From NCBI GenBank assembly GCA_036155555.1, contig JAYZVO010000125.1, positions 1 through 32,057 of the forward strand: 32,057 nt of DNA, in the 5' to 3' direction. This stretch comes from Myxococcota bacterium. GTDB lineage: Bacteria > Myxococcota_A > Bradymonadia > Bradymonadales > Bradymonadaceae. How positions within the stretch are numbered: position 1 is the stretch's first letter; every line of letters starts with the position of its first letter. The notes beneath the pieces were generated by a model that had not been told where the DNA came from, made no database searches, and was given only the letters and a program-made list of their open reading frames with translations. Made by a program: the position numbers and the translations under genes. Positions 8,758 to 32,057 of this stretch are shown in pieces.

Positions 8758-8783
8758 CACCTTATAAAAGGAGGGCTTGCACG

Positions 8784-9551: not shown

Positions 9552-9599
9552 TTCGGCCATTGCGCCGAACAACCTTCGCTCGCATCAGGAGAAGCGCGC

Positions 9600-10244
9600 G
9601 TGAAAGAGAAGAGCACCGACGCCAAGGCCAACGCGCCAGCGATTTTTGCCCCGACCGGTTATGTCTCACGCGAAGAGCACGAGACGCTCAAAGCACAGCG
9701 CGGCGCTTGCGTCTGGCTCACGGGGCTCTCGAGTAGCGGGAAGACATCGATCGCGCGCGCGCTCCAGCGCGCGCTCCACGCGCGCGGCGTGCACACCTAC
9801 GCGCTCGATGGGGACATGTTGCGGGGAGGTCTTTGCAAAGACCTCCCCTTCACACAGGAAGGGCGCGAGGAGAACATCCGACGCGCTGGCGAGGTCGCGC
9901 AGTTGATGGTAGACGCTGGGCTGATCGTCACCGCCGCGTTTATCTCGCCCTACCGTGAGGGACGAGCTCTTATCCGCGAGCGCATGCCTCGAGGGCGCTT
10001 CATCGAGTGCCACGTATCCTGCCCGCTCACGGTTTGCGAAGCGCGCGATACCAAGGGACTCTATGCGCGCGCCCGCGCTGGCGAGCTGGATCACTTCACA
10101 GGGATCTCGGCACCGTATGAAGCGCCCGAAGCGCCCGACTTGAAGCTCGAGACCGCTCCGACCGGGATCACCCCCGAGGAGTGTGCGATGAAGATCATAG
10201 CCTTGCTCGAAGAGCGAGGCTTGCTCTCGAAAGACACCCCCTGA
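9600..10244 (+). CDS. cysC: Adenylyl-sulfate (APS) kinase, stand-alone
   Basis: '[21 protein letters not shown]' P-loop. '[55 protein letters not shown]'. '...[36 protein letters not shown]' matches the conserved APS kinase core. GTG start with upstream AGGAG. Confidence 0.85.
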
Positions 10245-10262
10245 ACGCCAAAGGAAGAAGCA

Positions 10263-11543: not shown

Positions 11544-11547
11544 AAGC

Positions 11548-14834: not shown

Positions 14835-15710
14835 TCAATCGCCCACCAGCGCGTCGCGCGCATCCGAGAGCTTCGCCATCTCGTCATCGCCCAATGTCGG
14901 GTAATTGATCGGGAGGGACTTGAGCGTATCGACGATGATCTCGGCGACGCGCAAGCGCATGTAAGGCTTGTCGTCTGCCGGAATCGCATACCATGGAGCC
15001 CAGGGACGCGAGGTCTTGTCCAGCGCCTCCTGGTAAGCGTTCATGTAGGCGTCCCAGTGGCCGCGCTCCTTGACGTCGCTCATGGCAAACTTCCAGTTGC
15101 GCGCAGGATCATCTATGCGCTTGAGAAACCTTGCCTTTTGCTCATCACGCGAGACATTGAGCCAGAACTTGATGATGACGGTGCCGTTGCGCGCCAGGTG
15201 TTTTTCGTGGTCGCGGATCGACTCCAGGCGTTGCTCGAACAGCTCCTCGAGGGAGTCGGGCTTGAAGGGGAGGCGTTGGTTGTCGAGGATGCCCGGATGG
15301 ACGCGCACGACGAGGACTTCCTCGTAGTAAGAGCGGTTGAAGATACCGATCCTGCCGCGCTCGGGGAGGCACTTGGCGGTGCGCCAGAGGAAGTCGTGGT
15401 CGAGCTCCTCGGTCGAGGGCTGCTTGAAGGAGTAGACCTGACACCCGGCGGGGTTCACGCCGCTCATCACCGCGCGGATGGTGCCATCCTTTCCGGCCGC
15501 GTCCATCGCCTGAAAAATCAGCAAGACGGAGTGATGATCGCTGGCGTAGAGCACGCGCTGGAGATCGCGCAGCTCCTCGATCTTGTCCGCGAGCATGCGC
15601 TTGGCCTTCTTCTTCCCGGGCGCTTTCTTTGGTGGTTTGCAAGAAACCTTCGAGAGCTTGAAGGACCCGTCAAAGGGCACCAAAAGCTCGTTTTCGATCG
15701 CCTCGAACAT
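14835..15710 (-). CDS. ppk2: Polyphosphate kinase 2 (single-domain PPK2)
   Basis: 'IFQAMDAAGKDGTIR' Walker A. 'IFNRSYYEEVLVVRVHP'. 'FWLNVSRDEQKARFLKRIDDPARNWKF'. 'WYAIPADDK'. All are hallmark PPK2 motifs. Strong RBS AGGAGGAG. Confidence 0.85.
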   Translation of the reverse strand: MFEAIENELLVPFDGSFKLSKVSCKPPKKAPGKKKAKRMLADKIEELRDLQRVLYASDHHSVLLIFQAMDAAGKDGTIRAVMSGVNPAGCQVYSFKQPSTEELDHDFLWRTAKCLPERGRIGIFNRSYYEEVLVVRVHPGILDNQRLPFKPDSLEELFEQRLESIRDHEKHLARNGTVIIKFWLNVSRDEQKARFLKRIDDPARNWKFAMSDVKERGHWDAYMNAYQEALDKTSRPWAPWYAIPADDKPYMRLRVAEIIVDTLKSLPINYPTLGDDEMAKLSDARDALVGD

Positions 15711-16389: not shown

Positions 16390-17235
16390 ATGCAAGAATT
16401 TTTAACCATCATCCTCTCGATGCCCACGGTCGTATACACGGTGTTGATGGGACTCATGGCCCTCTACTGGGTCACGGTCATCATGGGCGCGGTGGATATC
16501 GACCTCTTCGATCTGGATGCAGATCTGGACGCAGATATCGACCTCGACGCGGACGTGGACCTGGATGTGGACGCGGATATCGACGTCGATGTCGACGCAG
16601 GCGTGGACACAGACATCGATCTGGACGCAGCGCATGGGAGCGCAGGGGTTGTCGTCTCGCTGCTCTCGGCGCTCGGCCTGGTGGGTGTGCCGCTGACGAT
16701 CTCGCTCAGCATCCTGGTGCTCTTTAACTGGTCATTGACCTTCTTGCTCGCCTACTCGCTGGGCGCAGGCAAGGAACCATTGAGCACCTTGTTCGGCGTG
16801 GCGGTCATGGGAGGGAGCTTGATCGCTTCGACGCTCTTGACCTCGATCGCGGTTCGTCCGATCCGCCCTCTCTTCCGCAGCAAGGCTGGCGCGAAAGCTG
16901 GCCGCGCGCTGGTGGGGATGACGATCAAGGTGACCTCGGGGAGCGTGACCGACACGTTCGGGCGCGCCGAGGGCACGTTGGATGACGCGACGATCAACTT
17001 CTCGATCCGATGCGAAGAGGAGAACAGCCTCTCCAAAGGCGATGACGCCCTGGTGATCGGATACGACGAGAACGCGCACGTTTACTACGTGGAGCCGCTC
17101 GATTCGATGTTGTCCGGGAAATCAAAGCACGGAGGGAAGAGCGCGCAGGAGCTCGAGGCTGTCTTCGACGAGCTCGAAGCTCAGCAAGAAGAAGAGGTCG
17201 AGGTCGGCGTCGAAGCCGAGGTCGACAAGGGCTAG
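16390..17235 (+). CDS. NfeD/YqiJ-like inner-membrane protein: N-terminal TM, acidic D-x repeat, 2-3 TMs, C-terminal OB-fold-like beta-barrel
   Basis: ATG 16390 is preceded by a purine-rich RBS; an alternative TTG start lies at 16372. Hydrophobic segments flank 'DIDLFDLDADLDADIDLDADVDLDVDADIDVDVDAGVDTDIDLDA'. The C-terminal 'LVGMTIKVTSGSVTDTFGRAEGTLDDATINFSIRCEEENSLSKGDDALVIGYDENAHVYYVEP' has the pattern of NfeD short-form OB domains. It lies immediately upstream of a flotillin gene, as in the yqiJ-yqiK and yuaF-floT arrangements. Confidence 0.65.
   Translation: MQEFLTIILSMPTVVYTVLMGLMALYWVTVIMGAVDIDLFDLDADLDADIDLDADVDLDVDADIDVDVDAGVDTDIDLDAAHGSAGVVVSLLSALGLVGVPLTISLSILVLFNWSLTFLLAYSLGAGKEPLSTLFGVAVMGGSLIASTLLTSIAVRPIRPLFRSKAGAKAGRALVGMTIKVTSGSVTDTFGRAEGTLDDATINFSIRCEEENSLSKGDDALVIGYDENAHVYYVEPLDSMLSGKSKHGGKSAQELEAVFDELEAQQEEEVEVGVEAEVDKG
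16495..16629 (+). repeat. Coding tandem repeat with 6-nt periodicity, (GAY-hydrophobic codon) about 22 times, encoding about 45 residues of alternating Asp and hydrophobic residues
   Basis: 'gatatcgacctcttcgatctggatgcagatctggacgcagatatcgacctcgacgcggacgtggacctggatgtggacgcggatatcgacgtcgatgtcgacgcaggcgtggacacagacatcgatctggacgca'. It also generates spurious antisense ORFs at 16402-16712. Confidence 0.85.
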
Positions 17236-17518: not shown

Positions 17519-19807
17519 ATGGGTGAAGGACCACTGTCTATTTTTGGCCTGGTGATCATCGGCGCGGTGGCGCTGCTGCTCATCGGCATCGTGGCGTTCA
17601 TCGCCAAGCTCTATCAAAAAGTCCTGCAAGGTCAGGCGCTGATCGTGAACAAGCCCAACGGGACCAAGGTCTTCTTCACGGGCGCCATCGTCGTCCCGCT
17701 CGTGCACCGTTCGGAGTACATGGACATCTCGGTCAAGACGATCGAGATCGAGCGCCAGGGGCATGACGGCTTGATCTGTAAGGACAACATCCGCGCGGAC
17801 ATCCGCGTGACGTTCTTCGTGCGCGTCAACGAGACCAGCGAAGACGTGCTCCGCGTGGCCAAGATGGTGGGTTGCCTTCGCGCATCCGACCAGGACACGA
17901 TCGAGGAGCTGTTCGGCGCCAAGTTCTCCGAGGCGCTCAAGACCGCCGGTAAGCAGTTCGAGTTCGAGGAGCTCTACCAGGCTCGTCAGGAATTCCGCGA
18001 TCAGATCATCGCCGTCATCGGCGATGACTTGAACGGCTACACGCTCGAGGATGTCGCCATCGATTACCTCGAGCAGACGCGCCGCGACTCGCTCGATCCG
18101 CACAACATCCTCGACGCCGAAGGTATCCGTAAGATCACCGAGCGCACCGAGGAGCAGCGCGTGCGCACCAACGAGCTCTCCAACTCGGCCAAGAAGAAGA
18201 TCGGTAAGGACGACCTGGAGACCAAGGTCGCCATGCTCGAGTACGAGCGCCAGCAGGCAGACGCCGAGGCTCGCCAGAAGCGCGAGATCGAGGTCGTCCG
18301 CGCCACGCAGCGCGCCTCGAGCGAGCAGGAGAAGGCCAAGCAGATCGCCCTCGAGCGCAAGGCACAGCTCGAAGCCGAGGAGTCGATCAACGTCCAGGCG
18401 ATCAACAAGAAGCGCGAGGAGCAGATGGCCGAGAAGGCCCGCGAGCGCGCGCTGATCATCGAGCAAGAATCGATCGAGAAGGAGAAGTCCCTCAAGATCA
18501 TCGAGCGCGAGCGCGAGGTCGAGATCAAGCGCATCCAGAAGGAGCGCGAGGTCGAGGTCGAGAAGAAAGAGATCGCCGAGGTCGTCTCCGACCGCATCGC
18601 CGTCGAGAAGTCGGTGGCGCAGGAAGAGGAGAACATCAAAGACTTGCGCGTGGTGGCAGACGCCGAGCGCAACAAGAAGGCGACCATCATCCGCGCCGAA
18701 GCCGAGGCGCAGCAAAAGCTCGTCGTCGACATCAAGGGCGCCGAGGCCAACGAGGAAGTCGCCAAGTACCGCGCTCGCCAGCGCATCATCGAGGCAGACG
18801 CTGACCTCGACGCGGCCGATCGCATCGCCAAGTCGAAGATCCGCATCGCTGAAGGTGTGCAAGCCGAGCAAGCCGCAGAAGGACTCGCCAAGGTGCGCGT
18901 CGAAGAGGCCGAGGCGAACGTCCTCGAGAAGCGCGGCAAGGTCGAAGCGACGGTCCTTCGCGAGAAGATGCAGGCCGAAGCGCAAGGTATGGAAGACCAG
19001 GGCATGACCAAGGTTCGCCTGCGTCAAGCCAACGCCGAAGCGCGCGAGCGTGAGGGCCAGGCAGAAGCCGACGTCACGCGCGGTCAGATGCTGGCCGAGG
19101 CCGCTGGTAAGGAAGAGCAGGACATGGTGCAGGTCCGCATCAAGCAGTCGATGGCGGACGCCATCGAGCGCGAAGGTCTGGCGCAAGCCAAGGTCATCCG
19201 CGAGAAGCTTTTGGCCGAGGCCGAGGGCTCACGCGAGCAAGGTCTGGCAGACGCTCAGGTCAAGGAAGCGCTGGCTGCTGCGACCGAGAAGCAAGGTCTG
19301 GCGGAAGCTCAGGTCATGCGTCAGAAGCTCGACGCGGAAGCATCCGGCATCGAGAAGAAGAACCTGGCACAGGCTGCGGGCATCCGCGAGCGCTTGTTGG
19401 CAGAGGCCGCTGGTATCGCCGAGAAGGCCGAGGCGATGAAGCACCTCGACGAGTACAGCCGCAAGCACGAGGAGTTCCGTCTGGCGCTCGAGCACGAGCG
19501 CGAGATCGCTCTCGAGCGACTCCGCACCAACATCGACATGGCGTCGGCGCAGGCATCGGTCTACGCAGAGGCGTTCAAGTCGGCCAACATCAACGTCGTC
19601 GGTGGAGACGAAGGGTTCTACAAGAACTTCCTCGGCTCGGTGTCCCTGGGGCACACCATCGACGGGTTCGTCGACAGCTCGGACACGGCGCGCGGGATTT
19701 TGGATCGCCTCGGCGTGGTCCTGCCCTCGGCGACGACCAACGGCGAGGCCAAGGCCGAGCCCGAGGACGCCGAGGTCGTGCCAGCTGAGGACGGCGCTGG
19801 CGAGTGA
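17519..19807 (+). CDS. Flotillin-family SPFH/Band-7 protein (YqiK/FloT-like) with an extended Glu/Ala-repeat C-terminal region
   Basis: RBS GGAAGGAGG. N-terminal TM (LVIIGAVALLLIGIVAFIA). SPFH core 'ALIVNKPNGTKVFFTGAIVVPLVHRSEYMDISVKTIEIERQG...DNIRADIRVTFFVRV...'. Long EA-rich heptad-like repeats follow (…REKLLAEAEG…, …RQKLDAEASG…, …RERLLAEAAG…), as in flotillins. 762 aa. Confidence 0.85.
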   Translation: MGEGPLSIFGLVIIGAVALLLIGIVAFIAKLYQKVLQGQALIVNKPNGTKVFFTGAIVVPLVHRSEYMDISVKTIEIERQGHDGLICKDNIRADIRVTFFVRVNETSEDVLRVAKMVGCLRASDQDTIEELFGAKFSEALKTAGKQFEFEELYQARQEFRDQIIAVIGDDLNGYTLEDVAIDYLEQTRRDSLDPHNILDAEGIRKITERTEEQRVRTNELSNSAKKKIGKDDLETKVAMLEYERQQADAEARQKREIEVVRATQRASSEQEKAKQIALERKAQLEAEESINVQAINKKREEQMAEKARERALIIEQESIEKEKSLKIIEREREVEIKRIQKEREVEVEKKEIAEVVSDRIAVEKSVAQEEENIKDLRVVADAERNKKATIIRAEAEAQQKLVVDIKGAEANEEVAKYRARQRIIEADADLDAADRIAKSKIRIAEGVQAEQAAEGLAKVRVEEAEANVLEKRGKVEATVLREKMQAEAQGMEDQGMTKVRLRQANAEAREREGQAEADVTRGQMLAEAAGKEEQDMVQVRIKQSMADAIEREGLAQAKVIREKLLAEAEGSREQGLADAQVKEALAAATEKQGLAEAQVMRQKLDAEASGIEKKNLAQAAGIRERLLAEAAGIAEKAEAMKHLDEYSRKHEEFRLALEHEREIALERLRTNIDMASAQASVYAEAFKSANINVVGGDEGFYKNFLGSVSLGHTIDGFVDSSDTARGILDRLGVVLPSATTNGEAKAEPEDAEVVPAEDGAGE

Positions 19808-19824
19808 GTGAGAGGCCCTAGAGT

Positions 19825-19874
19825 GTGAGGCGAGGAGAGTGACTGGGGTCACTCTCCTCGCCTCACGCGTTTTC
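19825..19874 (+). terminator. Rho-independent terminator after the flotillin gene (19-bp perfect GC-rich stem, 4-nt loop, then GCGTTTTC)
   Basis: GTGAGGCGAGGAGAGTGAC-TGGG-GTCACTCTCCTCGCCTCAC followed by GCGTTTTCAAC. Confidence 0.6.
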
Positions 19875-19968
19875 AACATGACGATGTGGTCAAGCGGTTC
19901 CTGGCTCGGGACACGTTTGCCCTGAGGAAGGGCGCGGTGTTCTCCGTGTGAAAGCAGGTGAGAAGAAG

Positions 19969-22900
19969 ATGACGACCGAACCGATCGAGCAAGCAGAAGC
20001 GCAGGAGTCTGGCGACGCCGCGCTCGAGACAAGCAACTACGAGGTGATCCGCAAGCGCCTCGTGGATCAAGGCCGCGAGTTGGCCAAACGCGCCGAGTCC
20101 CTGAACCAAAAGCGTCAGGACTTCTTCGGCACGATCTCGATGGAGGTCGTCGGCAACCAGACGATCACCACCGAGAACAACTGCATCCCGCAGGACATCA
20201 TCAACCTCGGGGACTGCCTGCTCTTTGGCTACAACGTCCACCGCAAGATGTCCCAGACGCAGATCCCGGATGTCTTTAGCTTGCACCGATTTAGCAAGGA
20301 AGGAGAGGAGCTCAGTCTGCGGCATGTGCCGCAGGACACGGGCGAGAACTTCCTGAGCCAGCCGCAGTTCATGGAGGACTTCGACAAGCTCTACTTCTCC
20401 TTCAAGGACGCCTTCTTGCGCCAGCTGCGCCGGACCGAAGGGCGCCTGCTCGCGATCTTCCAGACGGGCTCGAAGCTCGAGGATATCCGCGTGCTGCGTT
20501 GGGCCGTCGACGCGCATGACAACGTCACCTACATCGACAACGCTGGCGAGAAAGACAACGTCCAGGCGCGCTCGCACGACTTCGCCTGGGTCGCCACGCG
20601 CCGCGAGGACATGATCACGGGGCGCCACCCGCACATCGCGATCAAGAACAAGGTCTTCGTCGAGACCGTCGGCGGCGACCTCACCATCAAGGTCGAGGAC
20701 AACACCGAAGATGGCGTCGGCGTCTACTCCGAGCCTGTCGAGGATCAAAACCAGGCGCTCGGAGACGCCGAGATCTTTTACGCCGAGGTCGGCGCGCTGA
20801 TCCTGCTCAAGATCCGCCCCTACCGAGAGGACAACTGGCGTTACCTGGTGTTTAACACCCTGACCAAGACGGCCGCGCGCATCGACTCCATCGGGCAGTC
20901 CTGCGTGGCCTTGCCCGAGGACCACGGGATCATCTTCCCCGGCGGTTATGTGTTGGAGTCTGGCGAGGTCAAGACCTTCGAGCACGACACGCGCGATATG
21001 CGGATCGCCGAGACGCGCCGTTCGCCAAACGGCGAGGACGTGCTCTTTGCCTTCACGCGTCCGCAGGATGGGCAATACCTGTTGCTCTCCTACAACCTGA
21101 TCCGCAAGGAAGTCCTGAACCCGATCCTGTGCCACGGCTACTCGATCTTTGACGATGGCACGATGATCATCTTCCGCTCGACGGGGGACCAACAAACGCG
21201 CCACCACCCGATGCAAGTCTGGGGGACGCCGTTTTTGTCGGACGAGTACGCGGCGCAGATCCCATCGGATGGATCGCTGCTCTCCAAGATCGGCAACGCC
21301 GAGCTGGTGCGCGGCATTTCGGATGGCTTGACCATCCGAAAAATGATCAACAACCAGGAGCCGACCACCGAGATCTACACCTCGATCATCTCGGCCGCCG
21401 AGCGCATGATCGACGCCTACTACTGGATCGGCGAATCAGAAGCGGGCGACATGCGCGCGCCACTGCGCGAGGTCGTCAAGACGGCGACGTTGATTATCGA
21501 GGAGTTCGAGAAAGTCCGCGCGATGCGCCAGAACGCACGCGAGGCGCTCCGTGAAGCGGAGCGCGAGCAGTCGCGCCTCTTTGGCGATATTCGCTACGCG
21601 AACTGGCGCGAGATCGGGCGCTTTGTCGACGGATTGGATGGGCTGCGCAGCCAGCGAGGTCGCCTGATCACGCTGCGCGAAATGAAGTACATGCAGGTCG
21701 AGCGCATCGACGAGCTCGAGCAGGAGGTCATCGACCACTACGACAAACTCTCGAAGGCGACCGTCAGTTTCTTGCTCGGTGAGGGCTCGCTCTCGACCTA
21801 CCGCGCGAAAATCGACGCCGTGATCAAGGGGATCGAGGAGATCCAGACGACCGTCGAGGCCACAAAGATCAAGGAGGAGCTCGACACCATCGGCGAGGGG
21901 CTCAACCTCCTGACCGAGGTCATCAGCGGACTCAAGATCGAGGACCCCACCGCGCGCACGCAGATCCTCGAGAACATCGCCGAGGTGCTCGGGCAGCAGA
22001 ACCGCGCCCGCGCCATGCTCGACGCCAAGAACCGCGCGCTGCTCGAGACGGAGGGGCGCGCCGAATTCGCCGTGCAATTCCAGCTGCTCGGGCAGTCGGT
22101 CACGAGCGCCATCTCCATGGCCGAGACGCCCGAGCGATGCGACGAGCAGCTCGAGCGCATGATGGTCCAGCTCCAGGAGATGGAGAGCCGCTTTAGCGAG
22201 TTCGACATGTTTCTGGCGCAGCTGACCGAGAAGCGCGAGGAGATCTACGAGGTCTTCGAGACGCGCAAGCAGCAACTGATCGAGGCGCGCCAGCGCAAGG
22301 CATCGACGATCAACCAGGCCGCCGAGAAGATCCTGGCGGGCATCCAGCGCCGCGCGCGCAAGATGGAGGATGTCGAGGCGCTCAACGCTTATTTTGCCGC
22401 CGATGCCATGGTCATCAAGATCCGCGAGATGGCCACGCAGCTTCGCGAGTTGAAAGAGCCCGTCAAGGCCGACGACCTCGAGAACCAGCTCAAGGCCACG
22501 CGCGATCAATCGATCCGCACGTTGCGCGACAAGCTCGACCTGTTCGAAGGGGGCGACGCCGTCATCAAGCTCGGCAAGCACCGCTTTAGCATCAACACAC
22601 AGTCGCTCGAGCTCACGATGGTGCCCCGTGATAACGAGGTTCGCCTCCACATCACTGGCACCGACTTCTACGAGCAGGTCGAGGACAAGGAGTTCCTCGA
22701 GACGCGCTACCTCTGGGATCAACAGCTGATCTCGGAGACGCGCGACGTGTACCGTGGCGAGTATCTGGCGGCGTGCATCCTCGAGGATGCACGCACCAAG
22801 GCCAAGGGCTACACGATCCCGGATCTCTTCGATCTCTCGGTCAAGGACGACGAGCTGTTGCTGGTCGTGCGCAAGTACATCGAGGAGCGCTACGACGAGG

Positions 22901-25713
22901 GTTACGAGCGCGGCGTGCACGACACGGACACGACGCAGATCCTGACCGCGTTGCTCGGGCTCTACATCACGGCTGGGTTGCTCCGGTTCGGGTCGAAGGC
23001 GCGCGCGTTGGCGACGCTCTACTGGGCCACCGAGCCAGAAGAGCTCGAGGTCGAGAAGACATCAGCGATGACGCTCGAGCAGCGTCGCAAGGCCAAGGAG
23101 TCCCCGGCGCAAAGACGCCGCAAGCTGCTCGTTCGCCGCGCGCAATCATTCGGGAGGTTGAGAAAGACCTTCTCGTCGGCCTCCGCGGTCGCGGAGCTTC
23201 GCGCCGAGGTCGCCAGAGAACTCGGCGGCTTCTGCGAAGAGCATGGCCTGGATGACATCTTCTCGGGTCGCGTGCGCGTCGAAGCTGCCGACTACCTCAT
23301 CGAGGAGCTAGCAGCTGGCGAGCACCCACACTTTATTTTGAACTCCGAGGCGGAGCAGCTCGCGCGCAAGTTCTTCGACCACCTGGACCTGAGCAACTCG
23401 CGCAAGGACTTCGAGGATGATCTCGAAACATTGACCGGCGAGCTCGAGGCGAGCTGGGAGTTGGCGAGCAGCTGGCTCGCCGCATACACCGAGCAACGCC
23501 GCGAGGACGAAACGCCCGTCGGGTACCTGATGGACGAGACCATCGCGTACCTGATCACGAGCGGACAGATCGAGCGCGAGATCTCTTCGGCAAAGACCGA
23601 GACCCAGGTCAAGGAGTTGCTCGGGCAGCACCCGAGGATCGTCTCGCAAGTGCTCACGATCCGCCTGGACGAGTTCCTCTCGAGGTTGGATCGCTACATC
23701 CACGAGCGCGCGCCGGAGTACCGCGCCTACCGCAAGCTCTCGCACACGGTGCTCGACCGAGTGCGCAAGAGGTTGCGTCTGGACGAGCTCAAGCCGCGCG
23801 TGCTCTCGACGTTCGTGCGTAACCGGCTTATCGACGAGGTTTATCTGCCGTTGATCGGTGACAACCTCGCCAAGCAGATGGGCTCGGTGGGCGAATCAGG
23901 GCGCTCGGACAGGCAAGGCTTGCTGCTGCTCATCTCGCCGCCAGGTTACGGCAAGACGACGTTGATGGAGTATGTGGCGAACCGCCTCGGGCTGACGTTC
24001 ATGAAGATCAACGGCCCCGCGATCGGGCACCACGTGGTCTCGCTCGATCCGAGCGAGGCGCCAAACGCCACGGCGCGGCAGGAGGTCGAGAAGATCAACC
24101 TCTCGCTGCGCATGGGCAACAACGTGATGCTTTACCTGGATGATATCCAGCACTGTAACCCGGAGTTGTTGCAGAAGTTCATCTCGTTGTGTGATGCCAC
24201 GCGTCGCATCGAGGGTGTCTGGGATGGCCAGACAAAGACCTACGACCTTCGCGGCAAGCGCTTCTCGGTGGTCATGGCGGGGAACCCGTACACCGAGACC
24301 GGCGAGCGATTCCAGATCCCGGACATGCTCGCCAACCGCGCGGACACCTACAACCTGGGTGATATCCTGGAAGGTTCGCAGGATGCGTTCGCGCTCAGTT
24401 ACATCGAGAACGCGCTCACATCGAACCCTGTGCTCGCGCCTCTGTCGAACAGGGAGAAGGAGGACATTCACCTCTTTATCCGCATGGCGCAGGGCGAGGA
24501 TATCGCGCTGACGGACATGAAGTATAGCTACTCTGCGGTCGAGGCGAACGAGATCGTGACCGTTCTGAAGAAGCTGTTTGTCTGTCAGGATGTCCTGTTG
24601 CAGGTCAACCAGGCCTACATCGAGTCGGCGTCACAGGATGATGCTTATCGCACCGAGCCGCCGTTCAAGCTCCAGGGTTCGTACCGCAACATGACCAAGC
24701 TGGCCGAGAAGGTCGTCTCTGCCATGAACGATCAGGAGCTCGAGGCGCTGATCGATGACCACTACCTTGGCGAATCGCAGACGTTGACCACGGAAGCGGA
24801 GCAGAACTTGCTCAAGCTCAAGGAGATCCGAGGGCGTCTCACCGCAGAGGAGAAGGAGCGCTGGGAGTCGATCAAGAAAGAATACCGCCGTCGCAAGATG
24901 ATGGGTGGTGGGGACAATGATCCTGTGAGTCGGGTCGCCGGACCGATCAGCTCGTTGGTGCAGCGCGTCGAGGAGCTCCAGGGCGTGTTCCAGGGCAACA
25001 GCCAACTCAACACACCGCTCGAGGGTATCCGGGACGCGATCACCACAGCGGTCGCGCAACTCCAGACCGAGGGCGTGGCGTCGAAGAGCAACGAGGGCCA
25101 GCAAAACACAGGCTTGAGCCCTCAGGTGATCGAGCAACTCACCGCAGCGATCGCGGCGATGGGAGCGAGCAACAGCAACAACGGCAAGCACTCTGACCAG
25201 GTCGAGGCGTTGTTGCAGCGGCAGACGTTGATGTTCGAGGGCGCCTTCGGCGCGATCGAGAAGTTGGCGGATGCACAGGCGAACTCGAACCGCCAGAGCG
25301 CGGATACGCTGCGCTCGATCGAGAAGCTGATGCAGTCAGCTCCTGTGGCGCTCAAGACACCACCTCCGGGCTCGTTCGGAGGAGCACCTGTTGCGGGTCA
25401 GGGGCACACAATGCCAGCATCCTCATCGGGAGATGGTGGGGGAGGCTTTGGCGATCGTCCTTTGACGGGGGTCAAGAAGCGGCTTCCATTCAAGGAAGCG
25501 CGCAAACAAACCGCCGAGCACGAGGCGATCTCTCGCGATGATCCTCCGACCGAGGATGAGGCGAGCAGCGCACCAGCAAACACCTCCTCGCCGCAGGAGG
25601 CGCCTTTGACAAACGAGGCAAATCCAGCGCGAGCACAGGAGCCAAACGAAGCACAAGGTGGTAAAAAGAAAGGGAAGGTTCGCCTGGAGCCGCCATTTGA
25701 CACCGAAGATTGA
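19969..25713 (+). CDS. Giant (1,914-aa) protein: about 470-aa N-terminal beta-rich domain, about 800 aa coiled-coil/helical region, single AAA+ ATPase module of the MoxR/dynein (AAA_5) type, and about 440-aa helical plus low-complexity C-terminal tail
   Basis: SD AGGTGA 7 nt before ATG 19969; a GTG start at 19948 is also possible. Walker A 'LLLISPPGYGKTTLMEYVANRLG' at nt about 23944-23961. Walker B/helix 'NNVMLYLDDIQHCNPELLQKFISLCD' at about 24128-24143. Sensor-1-like 'RFSVVMAGNPYTE'. 'IPDMLANRADTYNL' resembles the MoxR 'LPEALLDRF' region. Heptad-rich segment about 21400-22550. The C-terminus is Q/S/N/G/P-rich and ends KKKGKVRLEPPFDTED. No protease, nuclease or VWA motifs were seen. Confidence 0.8.
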   Translation: MTTEPIEQAEAQESGDAALETSNYEVIRKRLVDQGRELAKRAESLNQKRQDFFGTISMEVVGNQTITTENNCIPQDIINLGDCLLFGYNVHRKMSQTQIPDVFSLHRFSKEGEELSLRHVPQDTGENFLSQPQFMEDFDKLYFSFKDAFLRQLRRTEGRLLAIFQTGSKLEDIRVLRWAVDAHDNVTYIDNAGEKDNVQARSHDFAWVATRREDMITGRHPHIAIKNKVFVETVGGDLTIKVEDNTEDGVGVYSEPVEDQNQALGDAEIFYAEVGALILLKIRPYREDNWRYLVFNTLTKTAARIDSIGQSCVALPEDHGIIFPGGYVLESGEVKTFEHDTRDMRIAETRRSPNGEDVLFAFTRPQDGQYLLLSYNLIRKEVLNPILCHGYSIFDDGTMIIFRSTGDQQTRHHPMQVWGTPFLSDEYAAQIPSDGSLLSKIGNAELVRGISDGLTIRKMINNQEPTTEIYTSIISAAERMIDAYYWIGESEAGDMRAPLREVVKTATLIIEEFEKVRAMRQNAREALREAEREQSRLFGDIRYANWREIGRFVDGLDGLRSQRGRLITLREMKYMQVERIDELEQEVIDHYDKLSKATVSFLLGEGSLSTYRAKIDAVIKGIEEIQTTVEATKIKEELDTIGEGLNLLTEVISGLKIEDPTARTQILENIAEVLGQQNRARAMLDAKNRALLETEGRAEFAVQFQLLGQSVTSAISMAETPERCDEQLERMMVQLQEMESRFSEFDMFLAQLTEKREEIYEVFETRKQQLIEARQRKASTINQAAEKILAGIQRRARKMEDVEALNAYFAADAMVIKIREMATQLRELKEPVKADDLENQLKATRDQSIRTLRDKLDLFEGGDAVIKLGKHRFSINTQSLELTMVPRDNEVRLHITGTDFYEQVEDKEFLETRYLWDQQLISETRDVYRGEYLAACILEDARTKAKGYTIPDLFDLSVKDDELLLVVRKYIEERYDEGYERGVHDTDTTQILTALLGLYITAGLLRFGSKARALATLYWATEPEELEVEKTSAMTLEQRRKAKESPAQRRRKLLVRRAQSFGRLRKTFSSASAVAELRAEVARELGGFCEEHGLDDIFSGRVRVEAADYLIEELAAGEHPHFILNSEAEQLARKFFDHLDLSNSRKDFEDDLETLTGELEASWELASSWLAAYTEQRREDETPVGYLMDETIAYLITSGQIEREISSAKTETQVKELLGQHPRIVSQVLTIRLDEFLSRLDRYIHERAPEYRAYRKLSHTVLDRVRKRLRLDELKPRVLSTFVRNRLIDEVYLPLIGDNLAKQMGSVGESGRSDRQGLLLLISPPGYGKTTLMEYVANRLGLTFMKINGPAIGHHVVSLDPSEAPNATARQEVEKINLSLRMGNNVMLYLDDIQHCNPELLQKFISLCDATRRIEGVWDGQTKTYDLRGKRFSVVMAGNPYTETGERFQIPDMLANRADTYNLGDILEGSQDAFALSYIENALTSNPVLAPLSNREKEDIHLFIRMAQGEDIALTDMKYSYSAVEANEIVTVLKKLFVCQDVLLQVNQAYIESASQDDAYRTEPPFKLQGSYRNMTKLAEKVVSAMNDQELEALIDDHYLGESQTLTTEAEQNLLKLKEIRGRLTAEEKERWESIKKEYRRRKMMGGGDNDPVSRVAGPISSLVQRVEELQGVFQGNSQLNTPLEGIRDAITTAVAQLQTEGVASKSNEGQQNTGLSPQVIEQLTAAIAAMGASNSNNGKHSDQVEALLQRQTLMFEGAFGAIEKLADAQANSNRQSADTLRSIEKLMQSAPVALKTPPPGSFGGAPVAGQGHTMPASSSGDGGGGFGDRPLTGVKKRLPFKEARKQTAEHEAISRDDPPTEDEASSAPANTSSPQEAPLTNEANPARAQEPNEAQGGKKKGKVRLEPPFDTED

Positions 25714-25777: not shown

Positions 25778-26917
25778 ATGTCCTACCACTACTTGTTGAT
25801 CGCCCTGCTCCTCGTCGCTCCTGCGGCGACTGCGTGCACGAATAAGGCGAAGAAGGCCGAGGAGCCCGTTCGCCTGACACGTGAAGAGGACTGGACCGTC
25901 GAGACGTTCGAGATCTCTGAGAGCGGCGTGTGGATCGAAGGGGACGAGCGCATCCAGCTGCCGTTCTGGGCGGTCGGCGGTGTGATCCGCGTCGATGATA
26001 AGCTGATCCCCAAGCGCGTGTTCAACGAGGTCGCGCGCCAGCAAGCCCACCGAAACATCGCCAGACACTTGCACAGAAGTTACGCGCAGATCGTCCTGGA
26101 TCGCATCGTGTCGGGCTACTTGCTCGACAAGGCCGCCGAGGATGCTGGCGTGGTCATCGAGGAAGAGGCTGTCGATGCCGAGGTGGAGAAGTCTCTGTCG
26201 AAGCTCGAAACCCAGGAAGATATCGACGCCTACTTCGACTCCGTGGGGCTCGACGCCAGGAGCTACCGCGATTTGATCCGACGGCAGCTCTACCACAAGC
26301 AATTCCTGACCGAGGTTTACGAAGTCCGCGTCACCGAGCAAGAAGCGCAAGATCACTACAAGCGCTACAAGCGCCGCTATGACAAGAAGGCCGAGGTCAA
26401 GGCGAGCCACATCCTGTTCAAGTTCAGCAGCAGCCGCCCTTCCCCCGAGGAGGTCGAGAAGAAGCGCAAGGAGGCAGTGTCAGTCGCGCAAATGGCGAGG
26501 CAACCTGGCGCGAACTTCGCGGAGTTGGCCAGGCAATACTCGGAGGGACCGTCGGGGCCAAAAGGAGGAGACCTGGGTTATTTCCAGGCGAACCGGATGG
26601 TGCGCCCCTTCTCGGACAAGGCGTTCTCGATGCAAGTTGGCGAGGTGAGCGAGCCGGTCAAGACGCGCTTCGGGTGGCATGTCATAAGGGTCGAGGACAG
26701 GAAACCTGCGCGACTTATCCCATTCGAGGAGGTGCGTGAGGAGCTCGAAATGGAGTTGCTCCAGAAGAAGCTCGTGCAGGCACAGAATGTGTTCCTGCGT
26801 CGAGCCAAGAGCGAGCATGACATCGAATACCTGACACGCAACATCCGTTATCACGAGAAGAAAGCCCCCTCGACGCAGCCGCGCCGATACCCGGAGTCGC
26901 AGCCGCGCTACCCCTGA
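25778..26917 (+). CDS. Parvulin-type peptidyl-prolyl cis-trans isomerase lipoprotein (SurA/PrsA-like)
   Basis: Signal/lipobox 'LLIALLLVAPAATAC'. Parvulin domain 'KASHILFKF...ELARQYSEGPSGPKGGDLGYFQANRMVRPFSDKAFSMQVGEVSEPVKTRFGWHVIRVEDRKP'. Confidence 0.8.
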   Translation: MSYHYLLIALLLVAPAATACTNKAKKAEEPVRLTREEDWTVETFEISESGVWIEGDERIQLPFWAVGGVIRVDDKLIPKRVFNEVARQQAHRNIARHLHRSYAQIVLDRIVSGYLLDKAAEDAGVVIEEEAVDAEVEKSLSKLETQEDIDAYFDSVGLDARSYRDLIRRQLYHKQFLTEVYEVRVTEQEAQDHYKRYKRRYDKKAEVKASHILFKFSSSRPSPEEVEKKRKEAVSVAQMARQPGANFAELARQYSEGPSGPKGGDLGYFQANRMVRPFSDKAFSMQVGEVSEPVKTRFGWHVIRVEDRKPARLIPFEEVREELEMELLQKKLVQAQNVFLRRAKSEHDIEYLTRNIRYHEKKAPSTQPRRYPESQPRYP

Positions 26918-27061
26918 ACCTGAGCGAGAATGGAGCGCCTCGCGTGTGCGGCGAGAGAGACGTGTTCGTTTCGCTCGCTCGCCTGCGGTGGCCACTCTGA
27001 ACCGTGTCCAAACCATCGCGGTGATTTTACGCGAGCCCCTTTCGTGCCCGAGGTACCCTGC

Positions 27062-28165
27062 ATGTTTCGTCCATCGATAGTGCTTCTGATTCTGTCCATG
27101 TGCGCGCTCTCAGCCTGCGCGGGTCAAAAGAAAGCGCAGGAAGATCCTGCGCCGTTGACCAACAACGAGAAGCCAACGGACCTCTTCAGGGTCACGCCCG
27201 AGGGCGTGTTGACGCGCGGCGACACCTCGATGGAGCTTTTGTTCTGGGCTGTGGGGCCTGTCGCGACCGTCGATGGAGAGGCGATCACGGAGGGGCACTT
27301 CAACCGCGAATCCTACAAGATGCAGAAGGTCACCGGGGGGAGGATTCCCCCTGAATATGCAACGATCTATGTGCAGAAGCTCGTGGAGCAGATCGTGGAG
27401 AAGACCTTGCTCGGGCGCGAGGTCGAGGCAGACGGCATCGAGGTACCAAAGGATCTGGTCGACGCAGAGCTCCAACAGATGCGCGAGTCCTCGCCCAGGG
27501 TCTTCGAGATGATCACGGGTGACGGGAAGATGACGATGGAGGAGCTCCGCGAGGAGGTTCGCCAACAGCTCGCCATCCGTTTGTTGTTGAAGAAGCGTTA
27601 TGGTTTGGAGGTAAGCGAAGAAGAGATCGCCAGGTACTACGATGAGAACGCGTACAGGTATGAGCAAGAGGAGCAAGTGAGCGCGCGCCACATCCTGTTC
27701 AAGCTCGACAGTGAGGCTTCTCCTGACGAAATCGAGGCCGCGCGCAAACGCGCCGAAGAGGTCATGTTGCTCGCGAAGCAGCCGGACGCAGACTTCGGGG
27801 AGTTGGCCAAACAATACTCGGAGGGACCGTCAGCGCCAAAAGGAGGAGACCTGGGTTACTTCCCAGCGAAGCGGATGGTGGAGCCCTTTTCGAAGGCTGC
27901 CTTCGCGCTCCAGATCGGAGAGGTGAGCGAGCCGGTCAAGACGCAGTTTGGATGGCATCTGATCAAGGTCGAAGGGAAGAAACCTGCGCGCACGGTCCCC
28001 TTTGAAGAGGTCAAAGATCAAATCCGCGAGCAGCTCGAAGCCAAGCAGCTCCGAAACGCCTACGGCACGCTTCTTGACGAGGTAAAAGCCAAGGCCGAGG
28101 TCACGATGCTCTTCGAGAACATCCGGTATCGCGGGGACGTGAGCAGCGAGACGCCCGAGCCCTGA
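27062..28165 (+). CDS. Parvulin-type PPIase lipoprotein, a tandem paralog of the previous gene
   Basis: Start at ATG 27062 ('MFRPSIVLLILSMCALSACAG', a lipoprotein signal) rather than the in-frame 26930 extension. Parvulin domain 'SARHILFKL...ELAKQYSEGPSAPKGGDLGYFPAKRMVEPFSKAAFALQIGEVSEPVKTQFGWHLIKVEGKKP'. Over 60% identical to the upstream paralog in this domain. Confidence 0.8.
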   Translation: MFRPSIVLLILSMCALSACAGQKKAQEDPAPLTNNEKPTDLFRVTPEGVLTRGDTSMELLFWAVGPVATVDGEAITEGHFNRESYKMQKVTGGRIPPEYATIYVQKLVEQIVEKTLLGREVEADGIEVPKDLVDAELQQMRESSPRVFEMITGDGKMTMEELREEVRQQLAIRLLLKKRYGLEVSEEEIARYYDENAYRYEQEEQVSARHILFKLDSEASPDEIEAARKRAEEVMLLAKQPDADFGELAKQYSEGPSAPKGGDLGYFPAKRMVEPFSKAAFALQIGEVSEPVKTQFGWHLIKVEGKKPARTVPFEEVKDQIREQLEAKQLRNAYGTLLDEVKAKAEVTMLFENIRYRGDVSSETPEP

Positions 28166-28276: not shown

Positions 28277-28687
28277 ATGAAGAAGATGATCGGTGTGTGG
28301 ATGCTCGGGCTCGTGGCTGTGACAAGCGTATCAGCGGTGGGTTGTGGCCCTGTGGCGACAGGCCGTGATGACGGCGCCTTCGAGCCCAGCCGCGAGCGGC
28401 GCGTGGAAGGAATCTCGAAGCAATACTGCAACCGCATCGAGCAATGCGGTGACATTGGCGAGGGGCGCGACTTCGAGAACTATAGCGAGTGCATCTCGGA
28501 TACGGAGTCCTTCTTCTATGACCTCTGGCCATCGGACGAGTGCGCGGAAGGTCAGATCGACTCGATCGCCTACGAGGGATGTTACCAGGAAGTGCAAAAC
28601 TACCCGTGTAACGCTGACTTCTTCGACGTGCTCGATTTCTTCTCGGATTGTGGCAGCGACGAGATTTGCATCGACCCACGCAACTGA
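28277..28687 (+). CDS. Small acidic Cys-rich lipoprotein (about 136 aa, about 10 Cys)
   Basis: Signal/lipobox 'VAVTSVSAVGCG'. Acidic with spaced cysteines (…YCNRIEQCGDIGEG…YSECISDTE…SDECAEG…EGCYQEVQNYPCNADFF…SDCGSDEICIDPRN). Confidence 0.55.
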   Translation: MKKMIGVWMLGLVAVTSVSAVGCGPVATGRDDGAFEPSRERRVEGISKQYCNRIEQCGDIGEGRDFENYSECISDTESFFYDLWPSDECAEGQIDSIAYEGCYQEVQNYPCNADFFDVLDFFSDCGSDEICIDPRN

Positions 28688-30572: not shown

Positions 30573-31388
30573 TCACTCTTCGATGTTCTCGATGACACCC
30601 TCGATGTAGTTCTTGCGCGTTTCAGCGTTCATGCCACGGAGCTTGCGACACATCGCGCTGATTTTCTGGGCGTCGATCTCCTCGAGGTTCTCTGCGCCCA
30701 TGCGCTCGACGTAGAGGTTCTGGAAGCTATCGCAGACCTCGGGTTCGGCGGACTCTTCGAGCAGCGCGCGGAACTCCTTGCTGCGCTCGGACCACTTGTT
30801 CTTCTCGTTCTCGGCCTTCTCTTCGGGGGCAGCCACGGCTTTTGGAGCTGGAGCAGCCTTTGGAGCAGCTTTTGGCGTAGGCGCAGGAGCTTGTTTGCGG
30901 CCGTTGACGGGGCGAGGAGCGTCGTCGTTCTCAGGATCGTCCCCGGTCGAGATGAGGAAGGTCTTGAGGAGGAAGTACTTGATCGCGCCGGTGTAAGCCT
31001 TGTAGTAGCCCTTGTCGCCGTTATCGAGGCCCTGCCCAACCCAGGTCGTGGTCATCATGTCACCGGATTCGCCGTCGATGAGGCTAACATCGAGGGTGAC
31101 GGTGGTCAGGTAGACGGTGCGGTTGCGAGCATCCTGGAGCTCATCCACGGTGTGTTCGCGAACGCTGGGGAAGAGCGCGACGCCTTGCTCGGCGAGCTTG
31201 GTGCGGATGTGGTCGACGAGGTCAGACTCGTAAACGTAGTCGTAACCGTGGAAGTCGTTGCGGCCGTTTTTGGGGACGCGGTGCACATCCATGAGGACCG
31301 TTGCCAACTTGCGAGCCAGCGGACGACCTTGCTCGGGGAGTGCTTGAGGAGGCGTTGGGAAGTGTGTGATGTTTGGGTTGGTGGCCAT
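30573..31388 (-). CDS. ERF-family single-strand annealing protein (phage P22 Erf-like recombinase)
   Basis: 'VPKNGRNDFHGYDYVYESDLVDHI' aligns with the Erf N-terminal 'APKNQYNSFGKYKYRSCEDILEGV' as I recall the P22 sequence. '…DKGYYKAYTGAIKYFLLKTFLISTGDDPENDD' aligns with the Erf 'KGMDAAQVTGATSSYARKYCLNGLFGIDDAKDAD' region. A Pro/Ala/Lys-rich linker precedes an acidic C-terminal domain. RBS GAGAGGGA. Confidence 0.8.
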   Translation of the reverse strand: MATNPNITHFPTPPQALPEQGRPLARKLATVLMDVHRVPKNGRNDFHGYDYVYESDLVDHIRTKLAEQGVALFPSVREHTVDELQDARNRTVYLTTVTLDVSLIDGESGDMMTTTWVGQGLDNGDKGYYKAYTGAIKYFLLKTFLISTGDDPENDDAPRPVNGRKQAPAPTPKAAPKAAPAPKAVAAPEEKAENEKNKWSERSKEFRALLEESAEPEVCDSFQNLYVERMGAENLEEIDAQKISAMCRKLRGMNAETRKNYIEGVIENIEE

Positions 31389-31579
31389 GACGTCCCTCTC
31401 TTATTTAAGGCGTTGCTGTGAAAGCTTGCTCTTCTTGAAACTCATCCGCTCTATCCTGGAGCGATGTGACGGGAGATGAACCGTGTCCCCGTCGTGACAG
31501 TTTCAATTGTAGGGAGGCCCCCCAAACTCTCAATGTCTTGTTTTTACGCAATACGATCAAAAACCACCACCAACCACTT

Positions 31580-31640
31580 CTTACCATCGTTATACGACCA
31601 AAAACAAAGCTTGCTTGGCTTACCATCGCCATACAAGCCA
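31580..31640. repeat. Two imperfect 21-nt direct repeats, CTTACCATCG(T/C)(T/C)ATAC(G/A)A(C/G)CCA, spaced about 39 bp apart in a low-GC region upstream of the ERF gene
   Basis: 'cttaccatcgttatacgacca' (31580-31600) and 'cttaccatcgccatacaagcca' (31619-31640). The surrounding 31400-31800 is markedly AT-richer than the rest of the window. Confidence 0.4.
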
Positions 31641-32057
31641 ACAAGAGGTGATTTACCCCTGTTTTTGGTCACTTCGGTTGGCGAATATTCTGGCGCGAAC
31701 CACCGACGACAGCCCGCGCGATCCTGGCACGAAATTTTCAATATTTTCGACAACTTGAACAATCAACCCGCATCACTCTGACGGCAGCGACATATCGAAG
31801 GGGGCTTAAAATTTGGGGCCAGGATCGCGCGGAACGCCAGCAATCGAGCCCATTCCGTTCCATCGGGAAGAAATCGAGAGCCGCGACGCAAGATCCGCAG
31901 TTAAATCCCCGAAAACAGTATTGCCTGCCACGTCGTCTGGCCGTCGACGAGGTTGTGCCACGGATGCACCCTGCTCGTTTTGCGAGCAGCAAATCCGGCG
32001 AACCCGTTTTTTTCAATATCTTCCTGTCTGAAGGGGAGTGCTTGTTCCAAAGCGCGT

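Follow-up and report, generated by a model that had tools for sequence, protein, structure and literature searches.

A gene for a giant AAA+ ATPase of 1914 amino acids (19969..25713) was identified on the plus strand of the analysed window, a stretch of 32,057 nucleotides from a member of the Myxococcota; all features described below are likewise located on the plus strand unless stated otherwise. The ORF starts with ATG at 19969, 7 nt upstream of which a ribosome-binding site (AGGTGA) is situated, and ends with the stop at 25713. Its translation is 100 % identical to one NCBI protein, derived from a Myxococcota MAG, and displays the domain order DUF3686-DUF7902-AAA_5. No TM-like segment was detected by scanning the whole protein, which is predicted to be soluble. 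Long minus-strand ORFs inside the gene, among them 19873-21216 and 21436-22920, were dismissed as shadow ORFs of a GC-rich gene; their clustering across loci is explained entirely by the overlap with the ATPase gene.

The two genes preceding the ATPase gene form a conserved trio with it. The first (16390..17235) codes for a YqiJ/YuaF (short NfeD)-like membrane protein of 281 aa, with hydrophobic segments at about residues 4-40, 80-125 and 131-155, the first of which precedes an enlarged acidic loop of (D-x)n type. Assignment to the YqiJ/NfeD-like family is based on the literature (PMC11237479; PMC13086221), the Pfam NfeD profile matching only 1 of 25 homologues (E 0.021). The second (17519..19807) encodes a flotillin-type SPFH (band-7) membrane scaffold of 762 aa, composed of a TM segment, an SPFH domain and a coiled-coil (flotillin) region. 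Within its N-terminal 330 aa, Pfam Band_7 was recognized at residues 35-181 (E 6.5e-8; 33.3 bits vs a cut-off of 23.6); on whole proteins the profile was found in 5 of 23 homologues (best E 5e-11), and NCBIfam FloT yielded a weak match. An N-terminal TM-like segment and long E/A-rich repeats are apparent from the translation; together with the Band_7 match, they supply the three elements of a flotillin-type protein (membrane anchor, SPFH domain and coiled coil). PDB sequence and profile searches with the flotillin-like and NfeD-like proteins returned nothing or chance-level matches. These conserved genes directly upstream, the most informative fact about the locus, had been overlooked in an earlier note made from the DNA letters.

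Eighty loci from Myxococcota, Actinomycetes, Gamma- and Betaproteobacteria and one Planctomycetota MAG were compared, 78 of which are informative, as the remaining two end before upstream DNA. In each of the 78 informative loci, the ATPase gene is preceded by a flotillin homologue in the same orientation, in nearly all of them directly, constituting a near-obligate linkage across phyla; the gaps between both genes are often -4 nt and mostly <200 nt. A YqiJ/NfeD-like homologue upstream of the flotillin gene was retrieved both by tblastn (61 loci) and by ORF clustering (74 loci). The order of the trio is constant, at about 45-57 % identity across phyla, and no other conserved neighbour was found among the 80 loci. 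DUF2170 and PspA genes are added upstream in 16 proteobacterial loci and a PLD gene downstream in 8. PspA is absent from the 32-kb window (tblastn), and neither DUF2170 nor PLD was found by Pfam in its ORFs. The full bac/PspA-type operon (CesT-like DUF2170, PspA, YqiJ, flotillin, ATPase and PLD) is not present; what the window contains is its shortened version without PspA, as described by Ravi et al. The downstream genes of the window (PPIases, PPK2, DUF6184 and other neighbours) are not kept beside the ATPase gene elsewhere and were regarded as lying outside the system.

The N-terminal beta-propeller domain of the ATPase (20077..21423; residues 37-485) represents DUF3686 (Pfam PF12458), profile positions 1-448 of 448 being covered (E 2.5e-188), and corresponds to the beta-rich domain of about 470 aa proposed in the earlier note. 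It is preceded by a helix (residues 23-53) and modelled mostly as strands (residues 59-420; AlphaFold2 pLDDT about 90). Foldseek matches of this domain are propellers (clathrin terminal domain, prolyl-oligopeptidase propeller, PON1 and trilobed protease). The top Foldseek matches of the N-terminal model were IFT-A, Elp1 and nucleoporins, all of which combine a propeller with a solenoid; at TM-scores of about 0.1 they were not read as kinship with coat proteins. DUF3686 always occupies the N-terminus, in proteins of about 1600-2000 aa, and comprises 718 clusters at 50 % identity.

A first helical scaffold (21277..22542; residues 437-858; AlphaFold2 pLDDT 80-94) contains DUF7902 (PF25472; nt 21787-22035; residues 607-689; E 3.4e-26). 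A second helical region (22753..23838; residues 929-1290; pLDDT mostly >90), for which a Pfam scan of the segment gave no family, leads into the ATPase module. Between them, a small conserved beta unit (22561..22683; residues about 865-905, VIKLGKHRFSINTQSLELTMVPR...) interrupts the helices; it was modelled as strands with pLDDT 89-96 in a second AlphaFold2 model and represents one of the ten most conserved 25-residue stretches. The helical region is gap-free in the alignment across phyla. Of the roughly 800 aa of heptad-rich helices described earlier, the helical nature held for residues 437-858 and 929-1290; a long continuous coiled coil was not apparent in the models, where the helices measure 58 residues at most, with short breaks between them, and the beta unit intervenes.

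The alpha/beta core of the AAA+ module (23896..24363) is of the MoxR/dynein/midasin (AAA_5) type. All motifs quoted in the earlier note, including the basic C-terminal end, were located in the translation: Walker A SPPGYGKTT (residues 1323-1331, nt 23935-23961; key residue K1329), Walker B MLYLDDIQH (residues 1387-1395, nt 24127-24153; key residues D1391-D1392), VVMAGNPY (residues 1434-1441, nt 24268-24291) with N1439 as sensor-1, and LANRADTYNL (residues 1454-1463, nt 24328-24357) with key residue R1457. The previously claimed single module of AAA_5 and not classical type was borne out by Pfam on the isolated module, AAA_5 scoring 34.7 bits over positions 2-126 of 139 vs positions 1-69 of 131 only for classical AAA; a full PF00004 core with second region of homology, as expected for the classical clade, was not found. 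AlphaFold2 placed beta-1 at 1319-1322, Walker B at 1386-1392 and a pre-sensor-1 beta-hairpin at 1413-1426, the latter together with the AAA_5-type core agreeing with membership of the MoxR family, and the predicted model of the module is closest in structure to CbbQ and NorQ, which are remodelling chaperones. In sequence searches against the PDB, made with the single protein as well as with the family profile, similarity was confined to the P-loop of p97, VAT, Rix7 and RuvB, which tells nothing of the remaining protein. No variation occurs across the family in the intact Walker A and Walker B motifs, sensor 1 or R1457, which was counted for an active ATPase on sequence grounds. Throughout the family, Walker B reads DD instead of DE, and ATP hydrolysis could therefore be slow or switch-like; an aromatic pore loop of the canonical kind was not recognized.

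MoxR proteins such as CbbQ, NorQ and RavA are about 250-500 aa in size, and CbbO, NorD and ViaA exemplify the VWA/MIDAS partners with which they cooperate. The present ATPase differs from MoxR proteins by the DD of Walker B and by an N-terminal fusion to propeller and helical scaffold of about 1300 aa. Residues 1349-1366 form a conserved loop between beta-2 and helix 2, for which no helix-2 beta-hairpin is predicted (AlphaFold2 model only). Moreover, no VWA gene accompanies the ATPase: in line with the earlier note, no VWA domain was detected by Pfam in the ORFs of the window, and none occurs among the conserved neighbours of the 80 loci. Within the ATPase itself, Pfam searches of the whole protein and of separate segments did not turn up a nuclease, protease or VWA domain or a further ATPase domain, again in agreement with the note.

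The core is followed by the lid and a conserved C-terminal helical region (24364..24933; residues 1466-1655; AlphaFold2 pLDDT mostly >85; conservation 0.74) and by a lineage-specific tail (24934..25710). The low-complexity, disordered character attributed to this tail applies to its P/A/G-rich part at residues 1791-1914 (pLDDT below 50), which is variable or absent among homologues, whereas residues 1656-1790 were modelled as low-confidence helices. The C-terminal end reads KKKGKVRLEPPFDTED (residues 1899-1914), and the terminal motif K(V/L)..PPF(D/E) is common only to the closest relatives.

A database search yielded 6,640 homologues sharing the whole architecture, which bear the NCBI name 'DNA repair ATPase'; among the matches listed, 120 homologues display 50-71 % identity over 86-100 % of the length. 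Comparison with a Pseudomonas aeruginosa homologue (P0126) revealed 47 % identity over 1657 aa, colinear over the full length. The gene order at the P. aeruginosa locus is DUF2170, PspA, a 213-aa protein, a 688-aa protein, ATPase, PLD, YaeQ, RecJ and M4 protease, which fits the published sizes of PA3730 (23-kDa) and PA3729 (76-kDa; PMC2587700) and thereby identifies the P. aeruginosa ATPase as PA3728, PA14_16190 and BacE. The present ATPase is thus an orthologue of BacE from the sigma-54 bacABCDEF operon. The bac operon is under the control of sigma-54 and BacA and has been tied to osmotic stress and biofilm (PMC10948618, PMC2587700); bacD, PA14_16190 and PA14_16200 are co-transcribed according to RT-PCR, and BacB to BacF are 6- to 13-fold up in a bacA mutant (Wallart et al. 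2024, PMC10948618). The published P. aeruginosa phenotypes stem from bacA and bacB mutants. PA3729 also appears in an Arc3 pull-down table, as background only. The AAA+ ATPase of the present family in PspA/flotillin/YqiJ operons, along with the abbreviated form of the operon, was described by Ravi et al. (2024), who propose membrane-associated assembly or remodelling and, for PspA-AAA+ associations, ATP-dependent remodelling (PMC11237479). Literature searches for DUF3686, and for flotillin together with 'DNA repair ATPase', found nothing.

The architecture, called unusual in the earlier note, is consequently no orphan: more than 6,600 proteins share it, and Pfam domains, an NCBI name, the 2024 description and BacE exist for it. 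The ATPase belongs to a widespread and already noted family, defined by an N-terminal DUF3686, a central DUF7902, a single C-terminal AAA+ module and flotillin and YqiJ/NfeD-like genes upstream, all of which are present here. Placement in a named, characterized family, which the note itself had set against its view, was attained as far as the name is concerned; an established biochemical role does not come with it. In addition to full-length colinearity, the ATPase shares with BacE the same Pfam domains and the position directly 3' of the flotillin and YqiJ/NfeD-like genes. It differs in that its operon in the window lacks DUF2170 (BacA) and PspA (BacB) upstream and PLD (BacF) downstream, in having no sigma-54 promoter match upstream, and in a longer, clade-specific disordered tail.

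The linkage to flotillin shows a functional association and does not single out the component that is the substrate. It makes action on membrane scaffolds, not on DNA, the most likely role of the ATPase. Specifically, a reading is somewhat favoured in which the ATPase uses ATP to remodel, or acts as a chaperone of, the membrane assemblies of flotillin (and PspA). The ATPase would be the soluble subunit of a three-gene membrane module further comprising the YqiJ/NfeD-like 3TM protein and the flotillin-type SPFH scaffold. We infer its oligomeric state to be a ring, as formed by the MoxR-like AAA+ modules of CbbQ and NorQ. Built-in adaptor arms, consisting of the beta-propeller and a helical scaffold of roughly 850 aa, would replace the usual VWA partner of MoxR and, through physical contact with flotillin, attach the ATPase to the flotillin/NfeD assembly on its cytoplasmic side. 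ATP hydrolysis would then remodel its presumed substrate, the scaffold or clients held by it, in the direction of assembly, disassembly or extraction. PspA polymers may be a further target where PspA is present, the setting being envelope stress. The absence of a VWA partner, which the MoxR relatives normally need, counts against this remodelling, as do the DD of Walker B, the missing canonical pore loop and the lack of PspA in the window.

Flotillin and NfeD could alternatively provide only a membrane platform, at which other membrane complexes accumulate as clients; the ATPase would then mature these complexes or control their quality in the manner of MoxR chaperones, without acting on flotillin or PspA themselves. 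Maturation of other enzymes is the task of the chaperones CbbQ and NorQ, the nearest structural relatives, the beta-propeller is a generic protein-binding platform, and HflK/C offers an analogy in corralling the AAA+ protease FtsH. No third-party client gene is linked, however, the conserved genes being those for flotillin and the NfeD-like protein only, and the ATPase system possesses neither a VWA/MIDAS adaptor nor a protease domain; we regard such a role as unlikely, if well worth considering. FtsH is a membrane-anchored AAA+ protease of the classical clade. HflK/C-FtsH, in which an SPFH scaffold is paired genetically and functionally with an inner-membrane AAA+ ATPase, represents a functional analogue, from which the present system differs by a soluble, protease-free ATPase of the AAA_5 type and an SPFH partner of flotillin and not HflK/C type.

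A membrane-acting abortive infection system against phages, with the ATPase as sensor or effector, would accord with the large NTPases with repeat domains common in conflict systems, with the small HKD/PLD gene 3' of the ATPase gene in some Proteobacteria and with an ERF recombinase gene 5 kb downstream in the window. PADLOC nevertheless assigned 0 families to ATPase, flotillin and NfeD-like protein (E up to 0.01), leaving the previously noted likeness to BREX or defence-island ATPases without a match. Conserved defence genes are missing around the trio, the order and ~45-57 % identity of which are kept across phyla. Furthermore, the P. aeruginosa cluster of 3,222 member sequences is located in a housekeeping neighbourhood beside recJ and lasB, and the regulation of the bac operon by sigma-54/BacA and its connection to osmotic stress and biofilm point elsewhere; anti-phage defence is therefore improbable. 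A role in DNA repair is suggested only by the NCBI name and the Pfam description of DUF3686, along with a weak local P-loop similarity to RuvB, and appears very improbable; neither an ABC-type split head nor a DNA-binding or nuclease domain was found (Pfam, NCBIfam). In the ABC-type ATPases SbcC, RecN and SMC, a coiled coil separates the Walker A and Walker B halves; the ATPase has only the name and a long helical region in common with them, its AAA+ module being contiguous and near the C-terminus and no SMC or AAA_23 match being obtained. The 'DNA repair ATPase' label on thousands of proteins is probably wrong. Hardly conceivable is a dynein- or midasin-like mechanical motor with coiled-coil stalk; the earlier note had loosely compared the layout to a dynein stalk plus AAA. 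In contrast to the six concatenated AAA modules of these proteins, only one is present; the helices are short (<=58 residues), often broken and N-terminal to the ATPase instead of emerging from its ring as a stalk, and linker, MIDAS domain and track are all lacking.

Bacterial flotillins are commonly viewed as scaffolds that are passive and need no ATP. A large and very conserved AAA+ ATPase, encoded directly 3' of the flotillin genes of one class in organisms ranging from Myxococcota and Actinomycetes to Pseudomonas, represents a concrete candidate for an active partner. As a more far-reaching and rather doubtful proposal, the family may be the dedicated energy source of bacterial flotillin assemblies, its ring docking with propeller and helical arms on flotillin/NfeD domes and assembling, opening or recycling them via ATP. 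If true, SPFH scaffolds would have a counterpart to Vps4 or NSF, and the dynamics of membrane microdomains in bacteria would for the first time be explained by an ATP-dependent mechanism and be tied to the PspA/ESCRT-III stress response. Similar to Vps4/ESCRT-III and PspA/Vipp1, the proteobacterial ATPase and flotillin genes share their operon with PspA, a member of the ESCRT-III superfamily. Vps4 differs as a classical AAA protein with MIT domain, neither of which applies to the ATPase, and the operon in the window is devoid of PspA.

The gene in the window is one more member of the family, its special features being only the clade-specific tail and an unusually strong hairpin preceding it. 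Matches to the sigma-54 promoter consensus were no more frequent than by chance, with none upstream of the trio, and scans for sigma-70 promoters and terminators remained at chance level. The 161-nt spacer between flotillin and ATPase genes harbours a perfect 21-bp hairpin followed by GCGUUUUC (19823..19868). RNA folding of 19808-19968 yielded -80.8 kcal/mol (z -6.9 vs shuffles), and the hairpin could act as a putative partial terminator or attenuator.

The longest ORF of the GC-rich contig (about 62 %) extends over positions 19948-25713 on the + strand; the sequence AGGTGA is located 7 nt 5' of the ATG at 19969, from which a product of 1914 aa is encoded. NCBI lists an identical protein from a Myxococcota MAG. 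Pfam domains identified were DUF3686 (residues 37-485, E 2.5e-188) and DUF7902 (residues 607-689, E 3.4e-26), next to a weakly matching P-loop region (residues 1319-1442) for which AAA_5 and AAA scored about equally in the whole-protein scan. On the isolated module, AAA_5 was the sole model to span Walker A through sensor 1 (positions 2-126 of 139), and the AAA_5 assignment made in the earlier note is therefore correct. Each of the four ATPase motifs, as well as the basic patch at the C-terminus, was found where that note had placed it. The segment-wise Pfam scans that it had suggested revealed nothing beyond the whole-protein domains, and Pfam detected neither nuclease, protease or VWA domains nor a second ATPase domain in the whole protein or its segments. 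The protein, in the sequence of which no transmembrane-like segment was found, is soluble.

The earlier note had regarded a single-module AAA_5 protein of this size as unusual and its layout as matching neither dynein nor BREX/defence-island ATPases, a claim of novelty that does not hold: the ATPase is another member of a known, named and widely distributed family without biochemical characterisation. A search of 5.8 billion proteins yielded 6,640 homologues, the best 120 of which (1668-2029 aa, identity 50-71%, query coverage 86-100%) all possess DUF3686, DUF7902 and AAA, many of them bearing the name "DNA repair ATPase". When the first 500 residues were used as the query of an exhaustive search, 718 clusters at 50% identity were returned, this domain being N-terminal wherever the match was full length (about 1600-2036 aa). 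Across 18 sequences from diverse phyla, residues 23 to about 1655 align gap-free, the AAA core is the best-conserved part (mean top-residue frequency 0.89) and the tail is variable or missing. Walker A GKT, Walker B DD, sensor-1 Asn1439 and Arg1457 are invariant in these homologues. Walker B thus reads hhhhDD versus the usual hhhhDE, both D1391 and D1392 (24139-24144) being invariant, so that all family members have another residue in place of the customary catalytic Glu.

Two overlapping AlphaFold2 models based on 78-sequence alignments covered residues 1-1100 (mean pLDDT 84.2) and 850-1914 (mean pLDDT 80.4). They predict a helix (residues 23-53), a strand-rich domain (59-420), helices of at most 58 residues each with short breaks (437-858), a small beta unit (about 865-905), further helices (929-1290) and the AAA+ alpha/beta core (1319-1462), followed by the lid and more conserved helices to residue about 1650, low-confidence helices (1656-1790) and a P/A/G-rich disordered end (1791-1914). 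Within the core, beta-1 (1319-1322), the Walker B strand (1386-1391), a beta-hairpin (1413-1426), beta-4 (1432-1438) and beta-5 (1459-1462) were discerned. According to Foldseek, the predicted N-terminal domain resembles beta-propellers, i.e. the clathrin terminal domain, the prolyl-oligopeptidase propeller, PON1 and trilobed protease.

The key clue, overlooked in the earlier note, is provided by two upstream genes on the + strand. These encode a YqiJ/NfeD-like membrane protein of 281 aa with three hydrophobic segments (16390-17235) and a flotillin-type protein of 762 aa (17519-19807) composed of an N-terminal TM segment, SPFH/Band_7 (E 6.5e-8 when the N-terminal fragment was scanned) and an extended E/A-rich stretch. 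For comparison, 80 related loci were collected from one-genome-per-species contigs, including Myxococcota, many Actinomycetes, Pseudomonas, Xenorhabdus, Pseudoalteromonas, Lysobacter, Methylomonas, Lampropedia and a Planctomycetota MAG. Synteny is near-obligate: in 78 of the 80 loci, tblastn placed a flotillin-like gene upstream of the ATPase gene in the same orientation, the other two lacking upstream DNA. The two genes often overlap by 4 nt, and most gaps are below 200 nt. Exceptions are Lampropedia hyalina (locus L074, 4566-7212), where two unrelated genes intervene, and one Myxococcales MAG (locus L035) with the flotillin homologue 6.3 kb upstream. Tblastn detected the small membrane protein gene in 61 loci, ORF clustering in 74; no further conserved neighbours were found across the 80 loci. 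After its first hydrophobic segment, the YqiJ/NfeD-like protein contains an expanded (D-x)n acidic loop (residues about 35-80), DIDLFDLDADLDADIDLDADVDLDVDADIDVDVDAGVDTDIDLD. The low-complexity loops at the matching place in homologues vary (D-, H- or G-rich), suggesting a cation-binding or lineage-tuned loop. In 16 proteobacterial loci, genes for DUF2170 (E 1.9e-50) and PspA/IM30 (E 3.4e-43) precede the trio. Eight loci have a small PLD/HKD gene (PLDc_2, E 7.2e-33) 3' of the ATPase gene. It comes immediately after the ATPase gene in gammaproteobacterial loci and P. aeruginosa (L026, L041, L052, L057, L063, L064, L072, L076 and L081, 12260-12952), being bacF in the latter, and its product may act on phospholipid or on nucleic acid.

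An operon of exactly this type, of which the window holds an abbreviated form, was described by Ravi et al. (mSystems 2024, PMC11237479), who read the associations as a membrane-proximal assembly and remodelling machinery. In P. aeruginosa, the six-gene version bears the name bac ("biofilm-associated cluster"). Mutation of bacA or bacB impairs biofilm, rhamnolipid production, swarming and virulence; upon osmotic shock, BacB accumulates; a sigma-54 site is located 5' of bacA; and PA14_16190 (bacE) and PA14_16200 (bacF) were assigned to the operon by RT-PCR and because they are co-induced 6- to 13-fold when bacA is mutated (PMC2587700, PMC10948618). The P. aeruginosa "DNA repair ATPase" (1746 aa) shares 47% identity over 1657 residues with the ATPase studied here and resides in the order DUF2170, PspA, 213 aa, 688 aa, ATPase, PLDc_2, YaeQ, RecJ, M4 protease. 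This order is consistent with the PAO1 map, on which we take recJ to be PA3725 and lasB PA3724. It also agrees with the published sizes of PA3730 (23 kDa) and PA3729 (76 kDa) for the 213-aa and 688-aa products (PMC2587700). BacE (PA3728) is thus the ATPase, and the protein studied here is orthologous to a co-transcribed and co-regulated operon member. Experiments on the ATPase itself are reported neither in the bac papers nor in a P. aeruginosa SPFH survey (PMC13086221) or the 2009 SPFH phylogeny (PMC2636767).

On balance, we lean towards the ATPase being a soluble, ATP-driven partner of the flotillin/NfeD scaffold. The MoxR-like module would assemble into a ring, propeller and helical scaffold would form a fused adaptor standing in for the absent VWA partner and docking to the scaffold, and ATP hydrolysis would remodel the flotillin assembly, its clients or, where present, PspA polymers during envelope stress. 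The main alternative, possible if rather unlikely, retains this complex and takes third-party membrane complexes as the substrate, in a MoxR-like maturation role or by analogy with HflKC-FtsH. A defence function appears improbable, as PADLOC gave no match, the genomic context is stable and of housekeeping type, and the operon is under stress regulation. Still less credence is due to a role in DNA repair, the sole support of which is the database name, a name probably wrong. Least plausible is a dynein-like motor, which would comprise six modules where a single one was found. As a candidate active partner for bacterial flotillins, the family represents an attractive open problem.

What the present ATPase contributes to this family is little more than a tail specific to its clade and a strong hairpin in the spacer before its gene. 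Following the disordered tail, a terminal K(V/L)(K/R)LEPPF(D/E) (25663-25710) is shared by the closest relatives only (P0003-P0011, identity at least about 64%) and could represent a short linear motif particular to this clade; tails of other homologues are unrelated (50-350 aa). Between the flotillin stop and the ATPase start, a GC-rich hairpin, perfect over 21 bp and with GCGUUUUC after it, is located at 19823-19868, the spacer (19808-19968) having a folding energy of -80.8 kcal/mol (z -6.9 versus shuffles). The hairpin might attenuate read-through and thereby keep flotillin in high excess over the ATPase; in many other loci there is no such spacer, the two genes overlapping by 4 nt.

Directly 3' of the ATPase gene, tandem genes for SurA/PrsA-like parvulin PPIases (25778-26917 and 26930-28165) were identified; neither these nor the other neighbours outside the trio have a counterpart in any of the 80 loci. 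A small ORF matching DUF6184 (28277-28687, E 1.3e-13) is flanked by the PPIase genes on one side and an unannotated ORF of 367 aa on the other. Further upstream are genes for an RCC1-repeat protein of 583 aa (434-2185) and PPK2 (14835-15710, minus strand). A polysaccharide-type cluster (4438-12654), which comprises four GT4 glycosyltransferases and one each of an NAD-dependent epimerase, methyltransferase and APS kinase, suggests a sulfated or otherwise modified glycan. An ERF-superfamily single-strand annealing recombinase gene (30573-31388, minus strand, E 6.3e-13) adjoins the window end, where GC falls to 0.55 (31001-32057), and may represent a prophage or mobile-element remnant.
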